A DNA stretch of 64,000 nucleotides from the sequence record MZ502379.1; one strand, written 5' to 3'. The position numbers and the translations under genes were made by a program. This document shows, one piece after another, positions 48,858 through 57,146 of this stretch (the stretch's first letter is position 1; each line of letters begins with the position of its first letter). The stretch comes from Escherichia phage vB_EcoM_Shinka. The notes beneath the pieces were generated by a model, which did no database searches, was not told the DNA's origin, and saw only the letters and a program-made list of their open reading frames with translations.

Positions 48858-49952
48858 ATGGCAATTGTTAAAGAAATAACTGCTGATTTAATTAAAAAGT
48901 CCGGTGAGAAAATTTCAGCCGGACAGAGTACTAAATCAGAAGTAGGAACTAAAACATACACTGCCCAGTTTCCAACTGGGCGTGCTAGTGGTAATGACAC
49001 TACAGGGGACTTCCAGGTAACAGATCTATATAAGAATGGATTATTATTTACTGCATACAATATGTCATCTAGGGATTCTGGAAGTCTTAGATCGATGAGA
49101 TCTAACTACTCTTCTTCATCTTCGAGTATTTTACGTACAGCCAGAAACACTATCAGTAATACAGTATCAAAACTGTCAAATGGATTAATATCAGATAATA
49201 ATTCAGGAACAATAAGTAAAGCTCCTGTCGCAAACATTCTTTTACCGAGATCTAAATCTGATGTTGATACATCATCGCATAGATTTAATGATGTTCAAGA
49301 AAGTCTTATCAGCAGAGGCGGAGGTACTGCTACTGGTGTGCTAAGTAATATTGCTTCAACTGCAGTATTTGGAGCACTGGAAAGTATAACACAAGGTATA
49401 ATGGCTGATAATAATGAACAGATTTATACGACAGCCAGAAGTATGTATGGTGGTGCTGAGAATAGAACTAAAGTGTTTACATGGGATTTGACTCCACGTT
49501 CAACAGAAGATTTAATGGCTATTATTAATATCTATCAATATTTTAACTATTTTTCTTATGGTGAAACAGGCAAATCTCAATATGCTGCTGAAATAAAGGG
49601 GTATTTAGATGATTGGTATCGTTCTACGTTAATTGAACCTTTATCTCCAGAAGACGCAGCTAAAAATAAAACACTATTTGAGAAAATGACATCGAGTTTA
49701 ACTAACGTTCTAGTAGTTTCAAACCCGACAATTTGGATGGTGAAAAACTTTGGTGCAACATCTAAGTTTGATGGAAAAACGGAAATATTTGGCCCATGCC
49801 AAATACAGAGTATCAGATTTGATAAAACACCTAATGGTAACTTTAACGGATTAGCTATTGCTCCAAACCTCCCTAGTACATTTACTCTCGAGATTACTAT
49901 GAGAGAAATTATCACGTTAAACCGTGCTTCTTTATATGCGGGGACTTTTTAA
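48858..49952 (+). CDS. 48: baseplate-tail tube junction protein gp48
   Basis: 364 aa; order. Confidence 0.85.
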   Translation: MAIVKEITADLIKKSGEKISAGQSTKSEVGTKTYTAQFPTGRASGNDTTGDFQVTDLYKNGLLFTAYNMSSRDSGSLRSMRSNYSSSSSSILRTARNTISNTVSKLSNGLISDNNSGTISKAPVANILLPRSKSDVDTSSHRFNDVQESLISRGGGTATGVLSNIASTAVFGALESITQGIMADNNEQIYTTARSMYGGAENRTKVFTWDLTPRSTEDLMAIINIYQYFNYFSYGETGKSQYAAEIKGYLDDWYRSTLIEPLSPEDAAKNKTLFEKMTSSLTNVLVVSNPTIWMVKNFGATSKFDGKTEIFGPCQIQSIRFDKTPNGNFNGLAIAPNLPSTFTLEITMREIITLNRASLYAGTF

Positions 49953-50917
49953 TGTATTCTTTAGAGGAATTTAATAATCAAGCAATAAACGCAGATTTCC
50001 AACGTAATAATATGTTTAGCTGCGTTTTTGCAACAACTCCATCAACTAAAAGCTCTTCGTTGATAAGTTCAATTAGCAACTTTTCTTATAATAACTTGGG
50101 CCTAAATTCAGATTGGTTAGGATTAACTCAAGGTGATATTAATCAGGGAATTACTACGCTAATTACAGCTGGCACACAAAAACTGATAAGAAAATCAGGA
50201 GTCAGTAAATATCTTATTGGTGCCATGAGTCAACGTACAGTTCAAAGTTTATTAGGCTCATTTACAGTTGGTACATATTTAATTGACTTCTTTAACATGG
50301 CATATAACTCATCTGGATTGATGATATACTCTGTAAAAATGCCAGAGAATAGATTATCCTATGAAACTGACTGGAACTATAATTCTCCTAATATTCGTAT
50401 AACTGGGAGAGAATTAGACCCTTTGGTTATTTCATTCAGAATGGATTCAGAAGCTTGTAACTATCGTGCAATGCAAGACTGGGTTAACGCTGTTCAAGAC
50501 CCAGTAACTGGACTGCGTGCTTTGCCACAAGATGTCGAGGCAGACATTCAGGTTAATCTTCATGCTCGTAATGGATTACCTCATACTGCTGTGATGTTCA
50601 CCGGATGCATTCCGGTGTCAGTGAGCGCTCCTGAGTTATCATACGATGGAGATAACCAAATAACTACATTTGATGTTACTTTTGCGTATAGAGTCATGCA
50701 GGCTGGAGCGGTTGATAGACAAGCTGCGCTTGAGTGGCTTGAATCTGCTACTATAAATGGCATTCAAAGCGTTCTCGGAAATAGCGGAGGTGTTACTGGA
50801 CTATCTAATTCGCTTTCACGACTTAGTAGATTAGGAGGAACTGCAGGAAGCATTTCAAACATTAATACTATGACAGGAATTGTCAATTCGCAAAGTAAAA
50901 TATTAGGAGCAATATAA
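49952..50917 (+). CDS. 54: baseplate-tail tube initiator gp54
   Basis: 321 aa; order. Confidence 0.85.
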   Translation: MYSLEEFNNQAINADFQRNNMFSCVFATTPSTKSSSLISSISNFSYNNLGLNSDWLGLTQGDINQGITTLITAGTQKLIRKSGVSKYLIGAMSQRTVQSLLGSFTVGTYLIDFFNMAYNSSGLMIYSVKMPENRLSYETDWNYNSPNIRITGRELDPLVISFRMDSEACNYRAMQDWVNAVQDPVTGLRALPQDVEADIQVNLHARNGLPHTAVMFTGCIPVSVSAPELSYDGDNQITTFDVTFAYRVMQAGAVDRQAALEWLESATINGIQSVLGNSGGVTGLSNSLSRLSRLGGTAGSISNINTMTGIVNSQSKILGAI

Positions 50918-50920
50918 CAA

Positions 50921-50948
50921 TGGGGACCGAAAGGTCCCCATATTTTTA
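50921..50948. terminator. terminator hairpin after gene 54
   Basis: stem TGGGGACC/GGTCCCCA, loop GAAA, then TATTTTTA. Confidence 0.6.
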
Positions 50949-51236
50949 TTTACGGAATGAAATAAAAGCAGCAACTGAAGCAACTAAACTGTCTTCAATA
51001 TAAACTTCAATTTTTACCGGAGCTTCTGACTCAAATTTACCTGTTACTACACCTTGGAAAATGCTTTCAGTCTGTTCTGGCTTTGAAAAATTTTCAGAAG
51101 GAAAAATTCCGAACTTTTTATCTGTTCCAAAAATTTTGATAAATTCGTCGTAAACCGCTTCATTAAAAGCGTTATCAGCAGGAATAACGCCTTCAACTAC
51201 AAGTTCTTGACCTAAAAAGCGTAAAGAAGATTTCAT
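50946..51236 (-). CDS. hypothetical protein (96 aa) downstream of the alt genes
   Basis: ORF with early-promoter-like motif upstream. Confidence 0.5.
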   Translation of the reverse strand: MKSSLRFLGQELVVEGVIPADNAFNEAVYDEFIKIFGTDKKFGIFPSENFSKPEQTESIFQGVVTGKFESEAPVKIEVYIEDSLVASVAAFISFRK

Positions 51237-51296
51237 TTTGTGTTCCTCATGTTATGTCAGTAAGACTACTATAACACAACACGAGGGACTTGTAAA

Positions 51297-53354
51297 CTAC
51301 ATTTTGAACTTTTTAGACATTCCGTTGATGTTAACCAAAGAAGCTAAGATTTGAGAAACTTCATTTTCCTCTTCTTTTGATTCTTCTACAAGGAATTGAT
51401 TAAATCCAGCCATTGGACGAACTTCACCAGTTTCCATTAGATGGTCTCCATCATATACTGATTCTTCTAATTGTTCAGAAGGAGGAACGATTGTACCTTC
51501 GATTAGATACTTGTTATAAGCAGTTTCTTTCATAAAGTACGTACTTACTTTATTAATCTTCAGTAAAATTCCACGCGGTAGAATAACTTCAGCTTCTGAT
51601 GGAAATCCTGATAAATGACCTGGAACGATAACTTTGATTCGCTCAGCTCCTTTAATTACCATACCCACACTAGTTTCAGCATCTTCATTAGCATATGTAG
51701 AATGACTACCCATATGCATCAAATCTTCTGCATCAACGGAACCTTCTCCTTCACCAGAAAATACTGCTCCGGAATCATCTAGAGCCATATAGTTTTTACC
51801 ATGCTCACCGAAGATATTTGGTTTAAGCGATGTGGATACGAAGTTCTTGAAATAGAACATTTTGTTTTCAATGTTATGACGCAAAGTTTTAAATGTAACT
51901 TCTTGTCCACGGTAAAGTGTAGTTCCTGGAGGAAGAACTGAACCTTTAGCGAATGCAGAATCCAACGTCTCGATGTGCTTAATAGCTCGTTCCATATATT
52001 CTTCACGGGTAGAATCTGGTTTACCCAAAAGGAACGAGTTCATTTCAACATATGAATCTGCACAATAATCTTCAATTACATCAGATTCAGCCTGAGTCAG
52101 TCCTTTTGGAGCTACTTCGGTGCTTGCGTATTCATATGCCTGGGCAGCAGATTCATTAATCAATTTATAAATGCCATTCATGACAAATTGAATAATAGCT
52201 GTCTTTTCATCTGGTGTGGTTTTAGAACCTTTAACTAAATCATTAATAATTTTCTTAATAACATCAAAGCTATTAGAAATATTAATGTCAGCAAGATCGC
52301 TTAAAATTTTATCAGTTTTATAATCAAAGAATTCTTTATTCTTTAAATATTCTTGAGAACCTTGATATGTTATATCGCTCTGCAACTTGATAGATGGATC
52401 ACGTAAACGTGCATGGGCCAATGCAATATGATTTCGGAAGCTTTCTAGTTCATAATCGTTAGATTTAAAACGAGAAGCACTTCTCATACCACCGATAGCT
52501 CCTTTGCTGAAGTTTGAACCAATCTGAATAACGCCAGAGTTCATTGGTCCTTCTGCTTTATATACCGGAACTTTAGATTCAAACTCTTGATATTTCTTAG
52601 CAGCGAAGCTATCACCCTGAAGTGAAGCATCAACAGTAGAATATTGAGCTTGTGCTGCTAATCGACGACTAATTTTAGTTTTCTGAATAACAGCTTGGTC
52701 CGTGCGCTTATCATTTTCTAAAGCAATAGAAGCAGCAACAGCGACAGCTTTAGGAACAGCATTACCTGTTTTAACATCTACATAAACATCACCGACCTTT
52801 GATTCAACTTTTGTGAATAACTCAGTTGAAATAGGAGGTACACCTGGAATGTCTTCTAAATTGGCATTTTTACGGTAAACCATAATATATGCGTACTTTT
52901 TATCATAGTCCCAGATTTCCTTTAAAAGAACATATCGACCTGCTCCTTTAGTACGTACTAAACGGTCAGCAATAACTTGCATTTGACGAGCTGCGCCATT
53001 TGTTTTACTCTTTAGTACGCGGAATAGGCATGCGTCGATTTTATACTGCTTCATTGTTTGAAGAGCAGTATCAAAAACAGCATTAATGACGCCAATTGGA
53101 TTTCCACCCAAGTTTCTAAGCTTAACCAGCGATAATTTCTCGTTGACACCTATCATTACGATATGCATCATTTTATCGCCTGGCTTAACGTTTTTATTTG
53201 TATCACCACCAGAGGTGTATGTACAAAATCTAAATCCAGGAAGCACGCTTTCTTCGCCGGCTTGGATAGCAAAAATTTGTGGTATTTTATGCTTAGGATT
53301 TAAGTTAACAACCGGCGCCGAAGCGCCGTCAAATAATTCTGTAATAAGTTCCAT
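51297..53354 (-). CDS. Alt-like ADP-ribosyltransferase, paralog 2
   Basis: 685 aa; N-terminal ~200 aa near-identical to the adjacent alt; ART-like motifs YRGQ, FVSTSL, SEAEVILPRG. Confidence 0.75.
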   Translation of the reverse strand: MELITELFDGASAPVVNLNPKHKIPQIFAIQAGEESVLPGFRFCTYTSGGDTNKNVKPGDKMMHIVMIGVNEKLSLVKLRNLGGNPIGVINAVFDTALQTMKQYKIDACLFRVLKSKTNGAARQMQVIADRLVRTKGAGRYVLLKEIWDYDKKYAYIMVYRKNANLEDIPGVPPISTELFTKVESKVGDVYVDVKTGNAVPKAVAVAASIALENDKRTDQAVIQKTKISRRLAAQAQYSTVDASLQGDSFAAKKYQEFESKVPVYKAEGPMNSGVIQIGSNFSKGAIGGMRSASRFKSNDYELESFRNHIALAHARLRDPSIKLQSDITYQGSQEYLKNKEFFDYKTDKILSDLADINISNSFDVIKKIINDLVKGSKTTPDEKTAIIQFVMNGIYKLINESAAQAYEYASTEVAPKGLTQAESDVIEDYCADSYVEMNSFLLGKPDSTREEYMERAIKHIETLDSAFAKGSVLPPGTTLYRGQEVTFKTLRHNIENKMFYFKNFVSTSLKPNIFGEHGKNYMALDDSGAVFSGEGEGSVDAEDLMHMGSHSTYANEDAETSVGMVIKGAERIKVIVPGHLSGFPSEAEVILPRGILLKINKVSTYFMKETAYNKYLIEGTIVPPSEQLEESVYDGDHLMETGEVRPMAGFNQFLVEESKEEENEVSQILASLVNINGMSKKFKM

Positions 53355-53357
53355 GAT

Positions 53358-55448
53358 TTATCCTTGAACGAACTTGTAAGGCATGTTTGTAATATCTATG
53401 CAAGACGCAATAATTCCAAGAGATGATTCTGCTTTCTGTTTAACATTTGATGAAACAAATGATGCAAAGTCAACTCTGTCTTCTATTTCACCTGTCATTG
53501 CAACTACTTCGCCGGTTTCCATTAAACGGTCACCGTCATAAATTACCGATTCGGTGAGTTCTTCGGTGGTCATAACTTCAGCTTGAATGAGTTTTGTATT
53601 GTTAGATGTTGTTCCGTCATTATTAGAAGCATCAGTTATTTTATTAACTTTGACCATCAATCCGCGCGGTAGAATAACTTCAGCTTCTGTTGCTATTCCG
53701 AGACTTCCTGGATATACAACATTAACTTTATGTGCGCCGTCAATTGCCCATCCTATTTGAACTTTAACGTATTCAGGATTTTCTTTATACGCTCTTATTT
53801 CGTTTGGATTAATAGTTATTCCTTCTTCATTTTTATCAACTGTTAATTCATTGCGAGCTTCTGGTTCTAAAAGACCAATACCAGCATGTGTAATTCCAAA
53901 ACGTCCAAAAATGATAGGAGTTAAAGAAGTAGATACAAAATTTCTGAAATAGAACACTTTATTTTTAACTAGCGCTTCATATATAGGAGCAGTCATACTT
54001 TGAGCACGATAAACTGTAATGCCTTCCGGTATACGGTCACCATTTTCAAAAGCTGAATCTAAATTATTTATAGCAGATTCAATTTCTTTTTCACTCATTG
54101 CATCATATCGTTCTGGATTGTAACGACCTAAAAGAAGATTATTAATGTCTGTATATCCTGAGCCACAATATTCTCTAATGCCGCGCTTTTGTGATGGAGT
54201 ATATTTAGAACCATCACGGGCAATAGTAATATCAATCATTGGACCAGCACCAATTCCAGAAAAACTATAAATCATTCGTTTGAGGAATTTAGTTTTTGCT
54301 GCATTCCAGGCATTTTTAGTTATTTCTCCCCAGACTTCATCTGGCTGCCCTTTACGAGTTTTATTATGTTTATCAAGCCAATTATCTTTATATTCTTCAA
54401 AGAATTTATTAATAGCTGCTGCGTATTTCTCTAAACATTTTATTGAAGTAGTTGGTTCATTTTTTATCGCGTTAAAAATTACATCTTTAATTTTTTCTGA
54501 AACTTCATCAACCTCACTTTTTGAAAAGAATTTATAGTCATAGTGAAGTTCATTCGCAGTTCCTTCGGCAATAATTTTTGCTGCCTTAATTTTAGAAGCT
54601 AATGAATTAATTCCAAGCTTCATTTCTTCTGCTTCGGGAATTAAAGGAGCGGTAGCAGGTTTATTGAAATTAGCTGCGGTAGATTCATACTTATGGAATA
54701 ATTCACTTTCAAATCTAGAAGATTCTAATGATTGACTTTGTGCAATTGCTCTACGGGAAATTTTAACTTTAACGATTACAGCTTGGTCAGAACGTTTATC
54801 ATTTTCTTGCGCAATAGATGCAGCAATTGCCTCATTTTTAGTTACTTGAGCTCCAGTATCTTTATTGATATAAACATCACCGACCTTCGATTCAACTTTA
54901 GTAAAGAGCTCGGTACTAATTTCCGGAACTCCTGGAATGTCTTCTAGTGATACATTTTTGCGATGTATAAGAATATATGCATACTTTTTATCGTAATCCC
55001 AGAGTTCCTTAAGAAGGACGTATCTGCCACCTGAACGACTACGGATAAGTCTATCAGCAATAACTTGAATTTGTCGAGCTTGGCCAGCAGTTTTAGACTT
55101 AAGAATACGAAGCATACAAGCATCAATTTTATATTGACGCATAGTTTGCATTGCAACAGTAAAAACTGAATTGATATAATTAATTGGGCTTGGACCAAGA
55201 CCTTTTAATTTAGCAATTGAACCTTTAGCAGTTAATGTAAAAGGAACAATATGCATCATTTTATCGCCCATTTTTAAATCGCGATTAGTATCACCTCCAG
55301 ATGTATAGGTACATAAACGAAAGCCTGGTTGTTCAATTGCGTCATCAACATGAACTGAAAAAATTTGTGGTATTTTCTTCTTTGGATTTAAGTTTGTAAT
55401 CGGAAGAGTAGTATCTTCGTCAAATAATTCTGTAATAAGTTCCATCAT
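53358..55448 (-). CDS. alt: Alt ADP-ribosyltransferase
   Basis: 696 aa; N-terminus MMELITELFDEDTTLPITNL...; motifs YRAQ, FVSTSL, TEAEVILPRG; adjacent to gene 30 as in T4. Confidence 0.8.
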   Translation of the reverse strand: MMELITELFDEDTTLPITNLNPKKKIPQIFSVHVDDAIEQPGFRLCTYTSGGDTNRDLKMGDKMMHIVPFTLTAKGSIAKLKGLGPSPINYINSVFTVAMQTMRQYKIDACMLRILKSKTAGQARQIQVIADRLIRSRSGGRYVLLKELWDYDKKYAYILIHRKNVSLEDIPGVPEISTELFTKVESKVGDVYINKDTGAQVTKNEAIAASIAQENDKRSDQAVIVKVKISRRAIAQSQSLESSRFESELFHKYESTAANFNKPATAPLIPEAEEMKLGINSLASKIKAAKIIAEGTANELHYDYKFFSKSEVDEVSEKIKDVIFNAIKNEPTTSIKCLEKYAAAINKFFEEYKDNWLDKHNKTRKGQPDEVWGEITKNAWNAAKTKFLKRMIYSFSGIGAGPMIDITIARDGSKYTPSQKRGIREYCGSGYTDINNLLLGRYNPERYDAMSEKEIESAINNLDSAFENGDRIPEGITVYRAQSMTAPIYEALVKNKVFYFRNFVSTSLTPIIFGRFGITHAGIGLLEPEARNELTVDKNEEGITINPNEIRAYKENPEYVKVQIGWAIDGAHKVNVVYPGSLGIATEAEVILPRGLMVKVNKITDASNNDGTTSNNTKLIQAEVMTTEELTESVIYDGDRLMETGEVVAMTGEIEDRVDFASFVSSNVKQKAESSLGIIASCIDITNMPYKFVQG

Positions 55449-55497
55449 AGCCTCTCTAGTGTTTATTCTATTTATAAAATTAAAGGCCCGAAGGCCT

Positions 55498-55686
55498 TTA
55501 ATAATCTATTGGTAAGAGAGTACGATATATTTCAAACTTTGGACCTTTTTCATAGGCATCAAATGTTTCTGTAAATTTATTATAAGCATATGCATCTACA
55601 AATTCGAGAATGACTTGTGATACAGAAGTAGAAACATCTCCACCTTCTTTTTGAGCAATGACAATTGTTTCTAAGTAAGCTTTCAT
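55498..55686 (-). CDS. hypothetical small protein (62 aa)
   Basis: ATG overlaps the ligase stop (ATGA), suggesting translational coupling. Confidence 0.45.
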   Translation of the reverse strand: MKAYLETIVIAQKEGGDVSTSVSQVILEFVDAYAYNKFTETFDAYEKGPKFEIYRTLLPIDY

Positions 55687-57146
55687 AGACCAGTTACCTC
55701 ATGAAAATCACCAAATACATCCTCGAACGTATTAGCTTTAGTTTTATCTTCACGTAAACGAATCGCAATCGGAAGAAATAATTTAACGTAATCAGTGCGA
55801 CCATCAGATTTTAACCAACCGTTGCATTCGCACTCTAGAATTTTTCCAATATAATAATTTTGATTTTCCATAATGCGAGTACGATCAAGTTCATGCGATT
55901 TTACACCGGCTTTATCTTTTAAGCCTGAACCAGCATTTACTTTAATTTTTCCACACTCTGATTCAAGAACGAAACCACCTGCTTTAGTAGGGTCTTTACG
56001 GTGAGGATAAATTCCTACAATTTTTAAATCAACATCAATTACTTCTTTGAATTTATAGAGATTTTTTGAACGAGCATTTTCCCATAATCCATCGATATTT
56101 TTGAGAATAATACCTTCAAGACCTTGGTCAATATACTTTTTGTAAATTACCTTAGCTTCATCTATGTTATTTACTAATTGGTTTTCAATTAAAATTACTT
56201 TATCATAGCCTGATGTCATTTGTTCTAGTTTAGAAAAACGTACATCATATTTTAAACGAAATGCTGGAAGACCATATATTTCTACTAATGGAACATAGTC
56301 CCAGACCTGAAACTTCATGCATTGTGCTTCTTTTTCAGAAATGGTTCCCTTTAAAGATTTATTGGCGATGCCATTAGATGCAGTACGTGATTCAGCTACT
56401 TCGGCGAATTCTTTAGCTTTACTAATTTCAGGATAAGCATCAAAAAGAAAATCTAGGCCTTCTGGTTCCTTTTCAACTTGCTCATGGTATACCAATTCGC
56501 CATCAATTAACACACCTTCTGGATGAATCTGGCGGGCTTCAGCGGTCATTTTGATTAACTCTTCCTTAAGAAGATCTAATCCTAGATATTCATTACCAGC
56601 TCGTGATAAAAGACGGACATCATCTAATTCATCACCTCTAACTTCAGCAAAACACCGAGCTCCATCTGCTTTTAATTGTGCAAAGGCTGGAAATTTGATA
56701 TTCTTACTAATGCCTTTTTCATCATAAGAACTTGCGAGCATTTGAGGTTGTTCAGGAATTAAACCTGGCCAAACTTTGTTTGCAATAGATACTGAAGCAC
56801 CACATTCAAGGTCTCGCATCATCACTCGACGCAAAACTTCAACATCATCTTTTTTACCATCGGTGATGTATCCAGTTAATTCCTCAATCGCCGCATTTCC
56901 AGTCAATTTCCGAGTAGCTAACGTGAATTCAATGAAGTCAAGCATATCGGTAAGAGTCAACATTCCAAAACTCTGGGTAGCAATACCAGGTTTAGGCCAT
57001 TTCTTGATATAATACTGTAACCCACGAGAATAAGTCAGACGATATACTCGTTTAAGCAATTCATTATCTTTATTCTTTTCAAGAATTGCTTGCTTCTGCT
57101 TAGTTGAACCAATAGATGCTATTTCGTTCAGAATTTTAAGAATCAT
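55683..57146 (-). CDS. 30: ATP-dependent DNA ligase gp30
   Basis: 487 aa; N-terminus MILKILNEIASIGSTKQKQAILEKN; adenylation motif KADGARC. Confidence 0.95.
   Translation of the reverse strand: MILKILNEIASIGSTKQKQAILEKNKDNELLKRVYRLTYSRGLQYYIKKWPKPGIATQSFGMLTLTDMLDFIEFTLATRKLTGNAAIEELTGYITDGKKDDVEVLRRVMMRDLECGASVSIANKVWPGLIPEQPQMLASSYDEKGISKNIKFPAFAQLKADGARCFAEVRGDELDDVRLLSRAGNEYLGLDLLKEELIKMTAEARQIHPEGVLIDGELVYHEQVEKEPEGLDFLFDAYPEISKAKEFAEVAESRTASNGIANKSLKGTISEKEAQCMKFQVWDYVPLVEIYGLPAFRLKYDVRFSKLEQMTSGYDKVILIENQLVNNIDEAKVIYKKYIDQGLEGIILKNIDGLWENARSKNLYKFKEVIDVDLKIVGIYPHRKDPTKAGGFVLESECGKIKVNAGSGLKDKAGVKSHELDRTRIMENQNYYIGKILECECNGWLKSDGRTDYVKLFLPIAIRLREDKTKANTFEDVFGDFHEVTGL

Follow-up and report, generated by a model that had tools for sequence, protein, structure and literature searches.

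A tandem pair of alt-type ADP-ribosyltransferase genes in Escherichia phage vB_EcoM_Shinka and the remnant of the second gene in phage T4

The gene pair and its expression signals

The stretch of Escherichia phage vB_EcoM_Shinka analyzed here (64,000 nucleotides of record MZ502379.1; hereafter the window) carries, as a preliminary description had reported, two adjacent minus-strand open reading frames of 685 and 696 aa. They occupy the slot between DNA ligase (gene 30) and alt.1 on one side and alt.-3 and gp54 (gene 54) on the other, on the strand opposite the baseplate genes. We refer to the upstream gene as A1 and to the downstream gene as A2. The features of the locus are as follows:

50946..51236, minus strand: alt.-3, a flanking gene of 96 aa (DUF5498; PF17602, E = 1.4e-64; phrog_1739), not an ADP-ribosyltransferase
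51268..51296, minus strand: early-type sigma-70 promoter (TTTACA-17-TATAGT with an upstream TG), directly after the A2 stop
51297..53354, minus strand: A2, the downstream gene, a full-length Alt paralogue of 685 aa
53358..55448, minus strand: A1, that is alt, the upstream gene, a T2/T6/RB32-type allele (696 aa counted from the first ATG, 695 aa if translation begins at the probable start)
53361..53365, minus strand: AAGGA ribosome-binding site of A2, inside the last alt codons, read from the sequence
55469..55476, minus strand: TATAAATA, matching the T4 late-promoter consensus exactly, 21 nt ahead of the start codon that alt probably uses
55479..55502, minus strand: intrinsic terminator hairpin after alt.1, with a 10-bp stem and a UUCG loop, followed by a U-run

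The A1 frame opens with ATGATG, and a GAGAGG ribosome-binding site lies 5 nt ahead of the second ATG: because of this spacing, and because T4 Alt starts with MELITE, the true start is probably at 55445, giving a protein of 695 aa. Both genes are named Alt-like ADP-ribosyltransferases in RefSeq; in the RB32, RB14 and T6 records A2 goes under the name ‘alt.-2’. The second neighbor, alt.1, matches PF24647.

Paralogy of the two products is directly evident: they align with 41% identity (BLASTP, E = 5e-164), far beyond chance. The N-terminal regions had been called near-identical; this proved too strong, as the first ∼240 residues are well conserved at 67–68% identity (162/242). The divergence claimed for the middle and C-terminal parts was borne out, with identities of 14% (17-sequence alignment) to about 21% (three-sequence alignment) in the middle domain, 36% in the ADP-ribosyltransferase (ART) domain and 45% in the C-terminal tail (the last two from the 17-sequence alignment). 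Synonymous sites are saturated throughout, with a dS of about 1.5 in the N domain.

Signals at both ends of the pair delimit it as an operon. The terminator folds with −13.5 kcal/mol (z = −3.3; no equally stable fold among 200 shuffles) and has annotated counterparts at this position in fPS-65, G28 and Merlin; it shields the alt operon from early and middle transcription coming from upstream. Late-promoter consensus sites number 25 in the whole window against 9.1 expected. The alt stop codon (53358–53360) and the A2 ATG (53352–53354) are 3 nt apart, and a sequence scan for the late-promoter consensus returned nothing in the space between them. A late promoter belonging to A2 itself was rejected, the only other TATAAATA lying 700 nt upstream, within alt. 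A2 is probably co-transcribed with alt from one late promoter. The early-type promoter, which coincides with a ‘predicted early promoter’ annotated in fPS-65, appears to drive alt.-3 and to mark the 3′-end of the alt operon.

The tandem pair is already known: annotations exist for T2, T6, RB32, JS10 and SP18 and in hundreds of phage genomes, and Nolan et al. 2006 (PMC1524935) had noted alt paralogues. At least 80% of the whole locus is covered in 341 phage records, and 401 records hold the A2-specific middle region with an identity of at least 90%. In T2 (KMC23_gp210/211), T6 (alt/alt.-2) and RB32 (alt/alt.-2) this slot holds the two genes in the same arrangement; their loci are ∼97% identical to that of the window and differ from it in nothing material. 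Pairs in this slot are also found in JS10 (EpJS10_0194/0193), SP18 (altA/altB), Merlin (gp220/219) and Aeromonas phage 31.2; the two members of the last cluster together in both the N-domain and the ART partitions and may represent an independent duplication.

Domains, catalytic residues and terminal motifs

Both proteins are laid out alike: behind a short predicted propeptide come a conserved, basic alpha/beta N domain with linker helices, a middle domain that is all-helical and hypervariable, the ART domain and an acidic tail.

A1: predicted propeptide, 1–6; alpha/beta N domain, ∼16–195; helical middle domain, ∼248–411; ART domain, ∼412–626; tail, 627–695
A2: predicted propeptide, 1–6; N domain, ∼15–195; helical middle domain, ∼250–415; ART domain, ∼416–625; tail, 626–685

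The motifs quoted in the preliminary description are all present (YRGQ, FVSTSL and SEAEVILPRG in A2; YRAQ, FVSTSL and TEAEVILPRG in A1), and neither copy is without its catalytic Arg or Glu. The R / S-T-S / E-x-E pattern corresponds to R482, S507-T-S509 and E587-A-E589 in A2 and to R480, S505-T-S507 and E587-A-E589 in A1; in a 46-sequence family alignment including both copies the R, S-x-S and E-x-E columns are invariant. Both proteins match phrog_802 over their full length (A2 residues 1–685, E = 9e-256; A1 residues 1–694, E = 1e-272) and score 72.3 bits (A2) and 129.4 bits (A1) against PF03496 (ADPrib_exo_Tox; gathering cutoff 23.4). Homologue searches retrieved proteins that bear the name Alt. 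Precomputed annotation assigns Pfam PF26846 to all family members; among NCBIfam families none matched A1 or A2.

The ART domains of A1 and A2 have the C3/VIP2-type fold, and their nearest structural matches are protein-arginine or actin/Rho-modifying toxins. A sequence search of the PDB returned weak ART-domain matches to binary toxins and nothing else, and no solved Alt structure was found there by sequence or fold search. A GNAT acetyltransferase fold for the N-terminal domain was considered and rejected, there being no profile-level relationship to GNATs or to any solved family. The comparisons support the view that A1 and A2 are paralogous Alt-family ADP-ribosyltransferases, apparently of the arginine type; the tandem pair is real and probably functional.

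Relative to the C3, VIP2, iota-Ia and Vis toxins (PF03496), Alt proteins add ∼410 N-terminal residues (the N and helical domains) and a ∼40-residue insert between S-T-S and E-x-E, the spacer between these two motifs having a family median of 78 residues. They also differ in delivery: Alt comes from the phage head, whereas the R-S-E toxins depend on secretion systems or binding components. Across the family, entropy reaches 2.9 bits for the middle domain and 2.7 bits for the S-T-S...E-x-E insert but only 1.5–1.7 bits for the N domain and ART core. The inserts of A1 and A2 are not alignable with each other, that of A2 being strongly acidic (net charge −7), unlike the alt insert. These data support a concentration of A1/A2 divergence in the regions expected to set substrate choice.

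Both termini carry motifs of the kind recognized by the prohead protease gp21. The N-terminal MELITE, followed by L, fits the rule of cleavage after L/I-x-E in both copies, and both tails hold the conserved gp21-type motif YDGDxLME-TGE (YDGDHLMETGE at residues 634–644 of A2), in which the cut would probably fall between LME and T. Conserved family-wide, the two motifs show some of the lowest variability along the protein, and they sit in low-pLDDT segments of the A1 and A2 models. In T4, the prohead core contains ∼40 copies of gpAlt, whose N-terminal peptide is taken off by gp21 (PMC9958956); processing of T4 Alt by gp21 at both termini is documented by mass spectrometry (PMC9026906), and packaging of T4 Alt in the head and its ejection into the host are likewise published (PMC9958956, PMC9026906). 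An Alt homologue has also been detected in virions of Morganella phage MP1 (PMC5384007).

The remnant in T4 and the exchange of effector cassettes

Alignment to T4 Alt and to the T4 alt.-1/alt.-2 run identifies A1 as the alt orthologue by position and A2 as the intact form of alt.-1/alt.-2. Two further features of the window are needed here:

51316..53007, minus strand: A2 segment missing in T4, with imperfect 9-nt direct repeats CTAAAGAGT and CTAAAAAGT at its ends (blastn and base-by-base reading of the junction)
53682..54707, minus strand: exchangeable effector cassette within alt, codons ∼247–588, comprising the middle domain and the ART domain as far as the E-x-E block (blastn breakpoints)

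T4 alt.-1 (NP_049810, phrog_23015) and alt.-2 (NP_049809, phrog_15247) match A2 residues 1–56 and 62–117 almost exactly. The break consists of a 1.69-kb deletion between the 9-nt repeats together with a −1 frameshift (1 nt) in an A5 run; alt.-2 owes its odd C-terminus to out-of-frame reading of the final 20 nt of A2 and the sequence beyond. T4 alt.-1/alt.-2 are what a deletion plus a frameshift left of A2, and the junction indicates that the deletion took place in the T4 lineage. The T4 record presents alt.-1/alt.-2 as a duplicated beginning of alt, while those of RB32 and T6 label the intact A2 an ‘apparent insertion in alt.-2’. The T4-type deletion junction occurs in 91 phage records. Since the deletion is found in T4 and in about 90 further records, and since truncated A2-type protein clusters exist (P0007, P0008, P0010), A2 is dispensable, at least in the laboratory.

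Where they are retained, both genes are under strong purifying selection: omega is 0.01–0.08 for both of them (compared with RB32, T2, T6, fPS-65, FL33 and G28). Each of these six phages has an intact A2 of 685 aa, for which omega is 0.01–0.07 and dS reaches 0.20. The alt cassette is deeply different from the T4-type allele between flanks that are about 97% identical at the nucleotide level; dS is ∼0.10 in the N-terminal flank and 0.07–0.16 in the tail but 1.0–1.3 inside the cassette. Since A2 is nearly invariant and alt polymorphic, the two genes would seem to experience different selective regimes.

Phylogenies point to the same modularity. Bootstrap trees were built for the N-domain and ART partitions; the middle domain is saturated and was compared by alignment identities. 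A2 groups with the downstream copies of JS10 and Merlin (bootstrap 0.98 and 0.83) and A1 with the upstream copy of JS10 (1.0), whereas the N-terminal domain groups by phage instead (0.88). The effector halves of A1 and A2 are separate orthologous lineages common to other genera. The preliminary description had read the pair as a duplication followed by diversification: the paralogy stands, but a local, recent divergence in place is not supported, given the orthologous effector lineages across genera, the saturated synonymous sites and an N domain that sorts by phage. With the N domain following the phage and the effector halves the paralogue, module-level recombination or homogenization is implied: the N-terminal domain tracks the phage lineage, and the middle domain and the catalytic cassette go with the paralogue and are recombined from phage to phage. 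Recent gene conversion as the source of the N-terminal similarity was rejected, dS between the paralogues being saturated there too.

T4 Alt (gpAlt, NP_049811), an NAD+:arginine mono-ADP-ribosyltransferase, has its length, domain order and slot in common with A1 and A2, as well as the late expression signal, the terminal gp21-type motifs and the R-S-E residues. For A1, its positional orthologue, identities to T4 Alt are 100% (N domain), 31% (middle domain), 65% (ART domain) and 91% (tail), the effector cassette being a different one (dS above 1); for A2, a distinct paralogue, the corresponding values are 67%, 10%, 37% and 45%. Biochemical work cited in PMC9503650 and PMC5512222 documents NAD+-dependent ADP-ribosylation of host proteins by T4 Alt, including the RNA polymerase alpha subunit. 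The measured targets of T4 Alt are not directly transferable to A1 or A2; even those of A1 would be extrapolated, because the window alt differs from T4 Alt across the whole cassette.

A proposed second injected enzyme and its possible targets

We consider it likely that the pair forms a two-gene late operon of a T2/T6/RB32-like Tequatrovirus, both products of which are packaged and injected, each with its own host targets. The single late promoter TATAAATA, just past the terminator, would transcribe alt and then A2, with A2 translated from its own ribosome-binding site. Both proteins would enter the prohead core by way of the terminal and N-domain determinants they have in common, be trimmed at both ends by gp21 to products of ∼70–71 kDa and be ejected together with the DNA. 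Each would then mono-ADP-ribosylate its own set of host proteins, with the middle domain and the S-T-S...E-x-E insert deciding which. Packaging, cleavage, ejection and enzymatic activity of A2, and targets differing from those of A1, are what we infer; distinct host targets for the two enzymes are plausible. Literature searches found no publication on the presence of A2 in virions, its activity or its targets.

It is possible, though we think it unlikely, that A2 is active and packaged but redundant with alt, acting on the same targets as an extra dose of enzyme. The two proteins share architecture, catalytic motif and operon, and T4 thrives without A2. Redundancy is hard to reconcile, however, with middle domains that are 14–21% identical and inserts that do not align, with effector lineages kept apart as orthologous groups across Tequatrovirus, Dhakavirus and Moonvirus, and with the contrast between a nearly invariant A2 and a polymorphic alt.

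Much less probable is that A2 is a packaged ART-fold protein whose substrate is something other than protein arginine (RNA or DNA, a small molecule, or an RNA chain to be attached in the manner of T4 ModB). Among C3/VIP2-type ARTs, E-x-E (not Q-x-E) is the signature of arginine-specific transferases; A2 has it, and the structural neighbors of the domain likewise argue for a protein substrate. Chemistry is nevertheless varied within the R-S-E clade, the acidic A2 insert is unlike that of alt, and there is a precedent in T4 ModB, which the abstract of a preprint describes as attaching NAD-capped RNA to proteins (bioRxiv 10.1101/2021.06.04.446905). That A2 is a decaying, functionless duplicate heading for the T4 state would explain the remnant in T4 and about 90 other records and the truncated A2-type clusters, but is strongly disfavored by dN/dS and by the intact A2 of all six comparison phages, and very improbable in view of the invariant catalytic residues, the about 400 records that keep the A2 middle region and the orthologous downstream copy retained in JS10 and Merlin.

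A broader proposal, to which we give even odds, builds on the reading of A2 as an injected enzyme: A2 would be a second head-packaged ADP-ribosyltransferase with its own conserved set of host targets, unstudied as T4 carries only its wreck, and the alt locus a polymorphic-effector system, in which a lineage-specific N-terminal head-delivery module is joined to target-recognition and catalytic cassettes swapped between phages and even genera, the upstream slot being highly polymorphic and the downstream one nearly fixed. A conserved, lineage-specific N-terminal module combined with a cassette exchanged between genomes is also found in polymorphic toxins and MuF-fused effectors, and the logic is that of the capsid-targeting sequences on T4 internal proteins (PMC9958956). 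Unlike the polymorphic toxin and MuF systems, the alt locus is without a MuF domain and no adjacent immunity gene was identified, the flanking alt.1 and alt.-3 having no known immunity role; the likeness is best taken as a resemblance in locus evolution, not as family membership.

Knowledge of injected ADP-ribosyltransferases in T-even phages rests mainly on T4, which this locus reveals to be the exception: two full-length Alt enzymes are carried by most Tequatroviruses (the classical T2 and T6 among them) and by several sister genera, and in most such phages the cassette of the upstream gene also differs from the one studied in T4. For annotation, T4 alt.-1 and alt.-2 are pseudogene fragments, and the ‘apparent insertion’ noted for RB32 and T6 states the event the wrong way round. 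If A2 has targets of its own, then most T-even phages would deploy an undescribed modification program in the earliest seconds of host takeover.

Two alt paralogues in tandem

The window is a segment of a T-even (Tequatrovirus) genome. Its Alt pair and the neighbouring genes are arranged as follows:

48858-49952, plus strand: gp48
49952-50917, plus strand: gp54
50946-51236, minus strand: alt.-3, a 96-aa DUF5498 gene just 3′ of the Alt pair
51297-53354, minus strand: 685-aa ORF, the downstream copy
53358-55448, minus strand: 696-aa ORF, the upstream copy (alt)
55498-55686, minus strand: alt.1 (62 aa), 5′ of alt
55683-57146, minus strand: DNA ligase gp30

The two long ORFs share 41% identity (BLASTP, E = 5e-164) and, on sequence comparison, are clear paralogues. 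The preliminary description of a tandem Alt-like pair is correct in this respect, and all the motif strings it quoted are found in the two ORFs; the N-terminal regions, described as near-identical, are 67-68% identical over ∼240 residues, that is, conserved but less so than claimed. The upstream ORF opens with ATGATG: because of the ribosome-binding-site spacing and the sequence of T4 Alt, the start of alt is probably the second ATG (55445), which gives a protein of 695 aa.

The product of alt.1 matches Pfam PF24647 ‘Phage blade protein’ (E = 2e-29) and phrog_1976. At alt.-3, T4 gains C-terminal extensions and so escapes the CmdTAC defence system (PMC11618068).

At the level of annotation the tandem pair is already known. 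Nolan et al. 2006 listed alt paralogues, including T4 alt.-1 and alt.-2 and a full-length duplicate in phage 44RR (PMC1524935). RefSeq labels both genes ‘Alt-like RNA polymerase ADP-ribosyltransferase’, and the second is named alt.-2 in the RB32 and T6 records. Literature searches found no functional work on the second Alt copy. A megablast search with 50900-55750 matched 543 phage records (database records, GenBank/RefSeq duplicates of one phage included). In 341 of these the query is covered to 80% or more, the best being ∼97.8% identical; T2, T6, RB32, RB27 and RB3 belong here, together with numerous recent isolates. Tandem pairs are found in the same slot in JS10 (Dhakavirus), SP18 (Gaprivervirus, where the genes are named altA and altB), Merlin (Moonvirus) and Aeromonas phage 31.2 (Biquartavirus); RB69, KPV15, Pet-CM3-4 and Acinetobacter phage DLP1 carry one alt copy only. 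The N-terminal domain, used as a tblastn query, was found at 1,816 places in 1,201 records.

Signs of function, expression and packaging

Both proteins score above the PF03496 cutoff and belong over their full length to phrog_802. None of the R, S-x-S and E-x-E columns varies in an alignment of 46 sequences from phages of Escherichia, Acinetobacter, Enterobacter, Kosakonia, Pectobacterium and Yersinia. The downstream gene is intact, with 685 codons, in all six of RB32, T2, T6, fPS-65, FL33 and G28, against which its dN/dS is 0.01-0.07; for same-type alleles of alt in this comparison set the value is 0.06-0.08. The private middle region of the downstream gene is present at ≥90% identity in 401 records. 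Judged by these signs both genes look functional.

Three clusters of truncated proteins match the 685-aa protein with 97-99% identity: P0007 (624 aa, n = 36), P0008 (528 aa, n = 7) and P0010 (415 aa, n = 12). They suggest either independently disrupted second copies elsewhere or gene calls that start late.

On the minus strand a 10-bp UUCG hairpin followed by a U-run (−13.5 kcal/mol, z = −3.3) lies 3′ of alt.1; after the hairpin come TATAAATA (55469-55476, minus strand), GAGAGG and the alt start codon. The downstream gene begins 3 nt past the alt stop codon, its AAGGA site falls within the 3′ end of alt, and no late-promoter consensus was found between the two genes. An early-type promoter for alt.-3 (51268-51296, minus strand) is located after the stop codon of the downstream gene, and the fPS-65 record annotates an early promoter at the same place. 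From this layout of promoters and ribosome-binding sites we infer that the pair is a bicistronic late operon. A second exact TATAAATA is found at 54065-54072 (minus strand), inside alt and ∼700 nt 5′ of the start codon of the second gene; the match may be fortuitous, or the site may act as a late promoter within alt that boosts the downstream copy.

AlphaFold models of the two proteins (pLDDT 79.9 for the downstream copy, 83.2 for alt) have the same order of parts: a disordered N-terminal peptide (residues ∼1-10), an alpha/beta N domain (∼15-195), linker helices (∼200-240), an all-helical middle domain (∼250-415), the ADP-ribosyltransferase (ART) domain (∼416-625) and a low-confidence acidic tail (∼626-end). 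The prohead core holds ∼40 copies of gpAlt, from which the prohead protease gp21 removes a small N-terminal peptide (PMC9958956), and mass spectrometry has Alt trimmed at both termini (PMC9026906). Both window proteins keep MELITE/L at the N terminus and YDGDxLME/TGE in the tail (the slash denotes the putative cleavage point). Conservation of both motifs extends from Escherichia phages to those of Aeromonas and Acinetobacter. With an entropy of 1.1-1.2 bits they rank with the least variable stretches of the family, and they fall in low-confidence segments of the models, which are presumably exposed. Cleavage at both putative sites would leave mature proteins with computed masses of 71.4 and 70.3 kDa. 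The downstream copy, we infer, is packaged and cut.

Departures from the general pattern are found in other phages. SP18 altA (L005:4995-6869) is without the conserved YDGDxLMETGE tail; the downstream copy of JS10 (L003:4287-6410) has S-A-S, and the upstream copy of Aeromonas phage 31.2 (L004:3049-4968) S-C-S, instead of S-T-S. Going by these sequences, some members of the Alt family may differ in processing or activity. In the RB69 record (AY303349; alt at L007:3495-5582) the annotated Alt is misframed for ∼55 codons over the catalytic R...S-T-S segment, and the canonical PLPEGQTLYRAQ...FYFRNYVSTSQAPIIFGGF is found in frame +2, which would reflect either two compensating sequencing errors or a genuinely inactive Alt.

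Modular evolution of the locus

Entropy across the family marks two regions as hypervariable: it is 2.9 bits in the middle domain and 2.7 bits in the insert separating S-T-S from E-x-E, where the spacer measures 56-100 residues, against 1.5-1.7 bits in the N domain and ART core. In C3-like ARTs the substrate-selecting loops lie in the segment directly before E-x-E.

Trees of the separate regions are mutually discordant. The N-domain tree places the window's two copies together, that is, by phage (bootstrap 0.88); in the ART tree the downstream copy groups with that of JS10 (0.98), and these two with the downstream copy of Merlin (0.83), and the upstream copy groups with its JS10 counterpart (1.0). 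Recent gene conversion as the source of the shared N domain is ruled out because synonymous sites between the window's copies are saturated in every region. In contrast to the enterobacterial pairs, the copies of Aeromonas phage 31.2 (L004:3049-6926) cluster with each other in the N-domain tree and in the ART tree alike (bootstrap 0.96-1.0), suggesting that this lineage had a duplication of its own.

Deeply different alt alleles occur within Tequatrovirus. The upstream copy is alt, and yet region by region its identity to T4 Alt falls from 100% (N domain) and 91% (tail) to 65% (ART domain) and 31% (middle domain). Measured against T4-type alleles (T4, fPS-65), the N domain has a dS of ∼0.10 and the tail one of 0.07-0.16, but dS rises to 1.0-1.3 from codon ∼247-269 to codon 588/589, a boundary that is exactly the E-x-E block. 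All identity bands are populated for the alt middle region, with 428 records below 60%; compared with it the downstream copy is nearly invariant. The upstream copy of JS10 is 80.6% identical to the window in nucleotide sequence over codons 227-645, and its N domain has no detectable nucleotide match.

Given the discordant trees and these patterns of alleles and identity, the Alt locus evolves modularly: it behaves as a conserved delivery module with exchangeable effector cassettes, which in alt comprise the middle domain and the ART domain up to the E-x-E block. The interpretation first offered, duplication followed by diversification of a packaged enzyme, stands insofar as the copies are paralogous, intact and probably packaged; as a history it is too simple, and its proposal of different host targets for the two copies is a hypothesis. 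In phage fPS-65 (L013) a T4-type alt cassette stands beside an intact second copy 99% identical to that of the window; alt allele type and second-copy presence therefore assort independently.

The second copy in T4

Unlike the window, T4 is without a full-length second gene and has the small ORFs alt.-1 (61 aa) and alt.-2 (67 aa). The T4 record speaks of a ‘duplication of the first part of alt’; the RB32 and T6 records note an ‘apparent insertion in alt.-2’. A deletion in the T4 lineage is the better reading of both notes. It is the 685-aa gene of the window, not T4 Alt, whose first ∼117 residues the two small ORFs match. The families phrog_23015 and phrog_15247, whose 61 and 67 positions equal the lengths of alt.-1 and alt.-2, match the 685-aa protein at 2e-40 and 1e-37; for the upstream copy the values are weaker, 1e-21 and 2e-19. 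The T4 nucleotide alignment tracks the window to 53007 and restarts at 51316; the junction, CGCGTACTAAA/AAGTTCAAAATGTAG, is a fusion of the imperfect 9-nt direct repeats CTAAAGAGT and CTAAAAAGT, which lie 1.69 kb apart in the window, and is shared by 91 records. The split between alt.-1 and alt.-2 comes from the loss of one base from an A5 run, and alt.-2 owes its unusual C-terminus to out-of-frame reading through the end of the 685-aa gene and on into the promoter region downstream.

The junction, the one-base loss and the out-of-frame end together argue that T4 holds a pseudogene remnant of the second copy. T4 is atypical, and its alt.-1 and alt.-2 are pseudogene fragments; neither effector cassette of vB_EcoM_Shinka is the one studied biochemically in T4.
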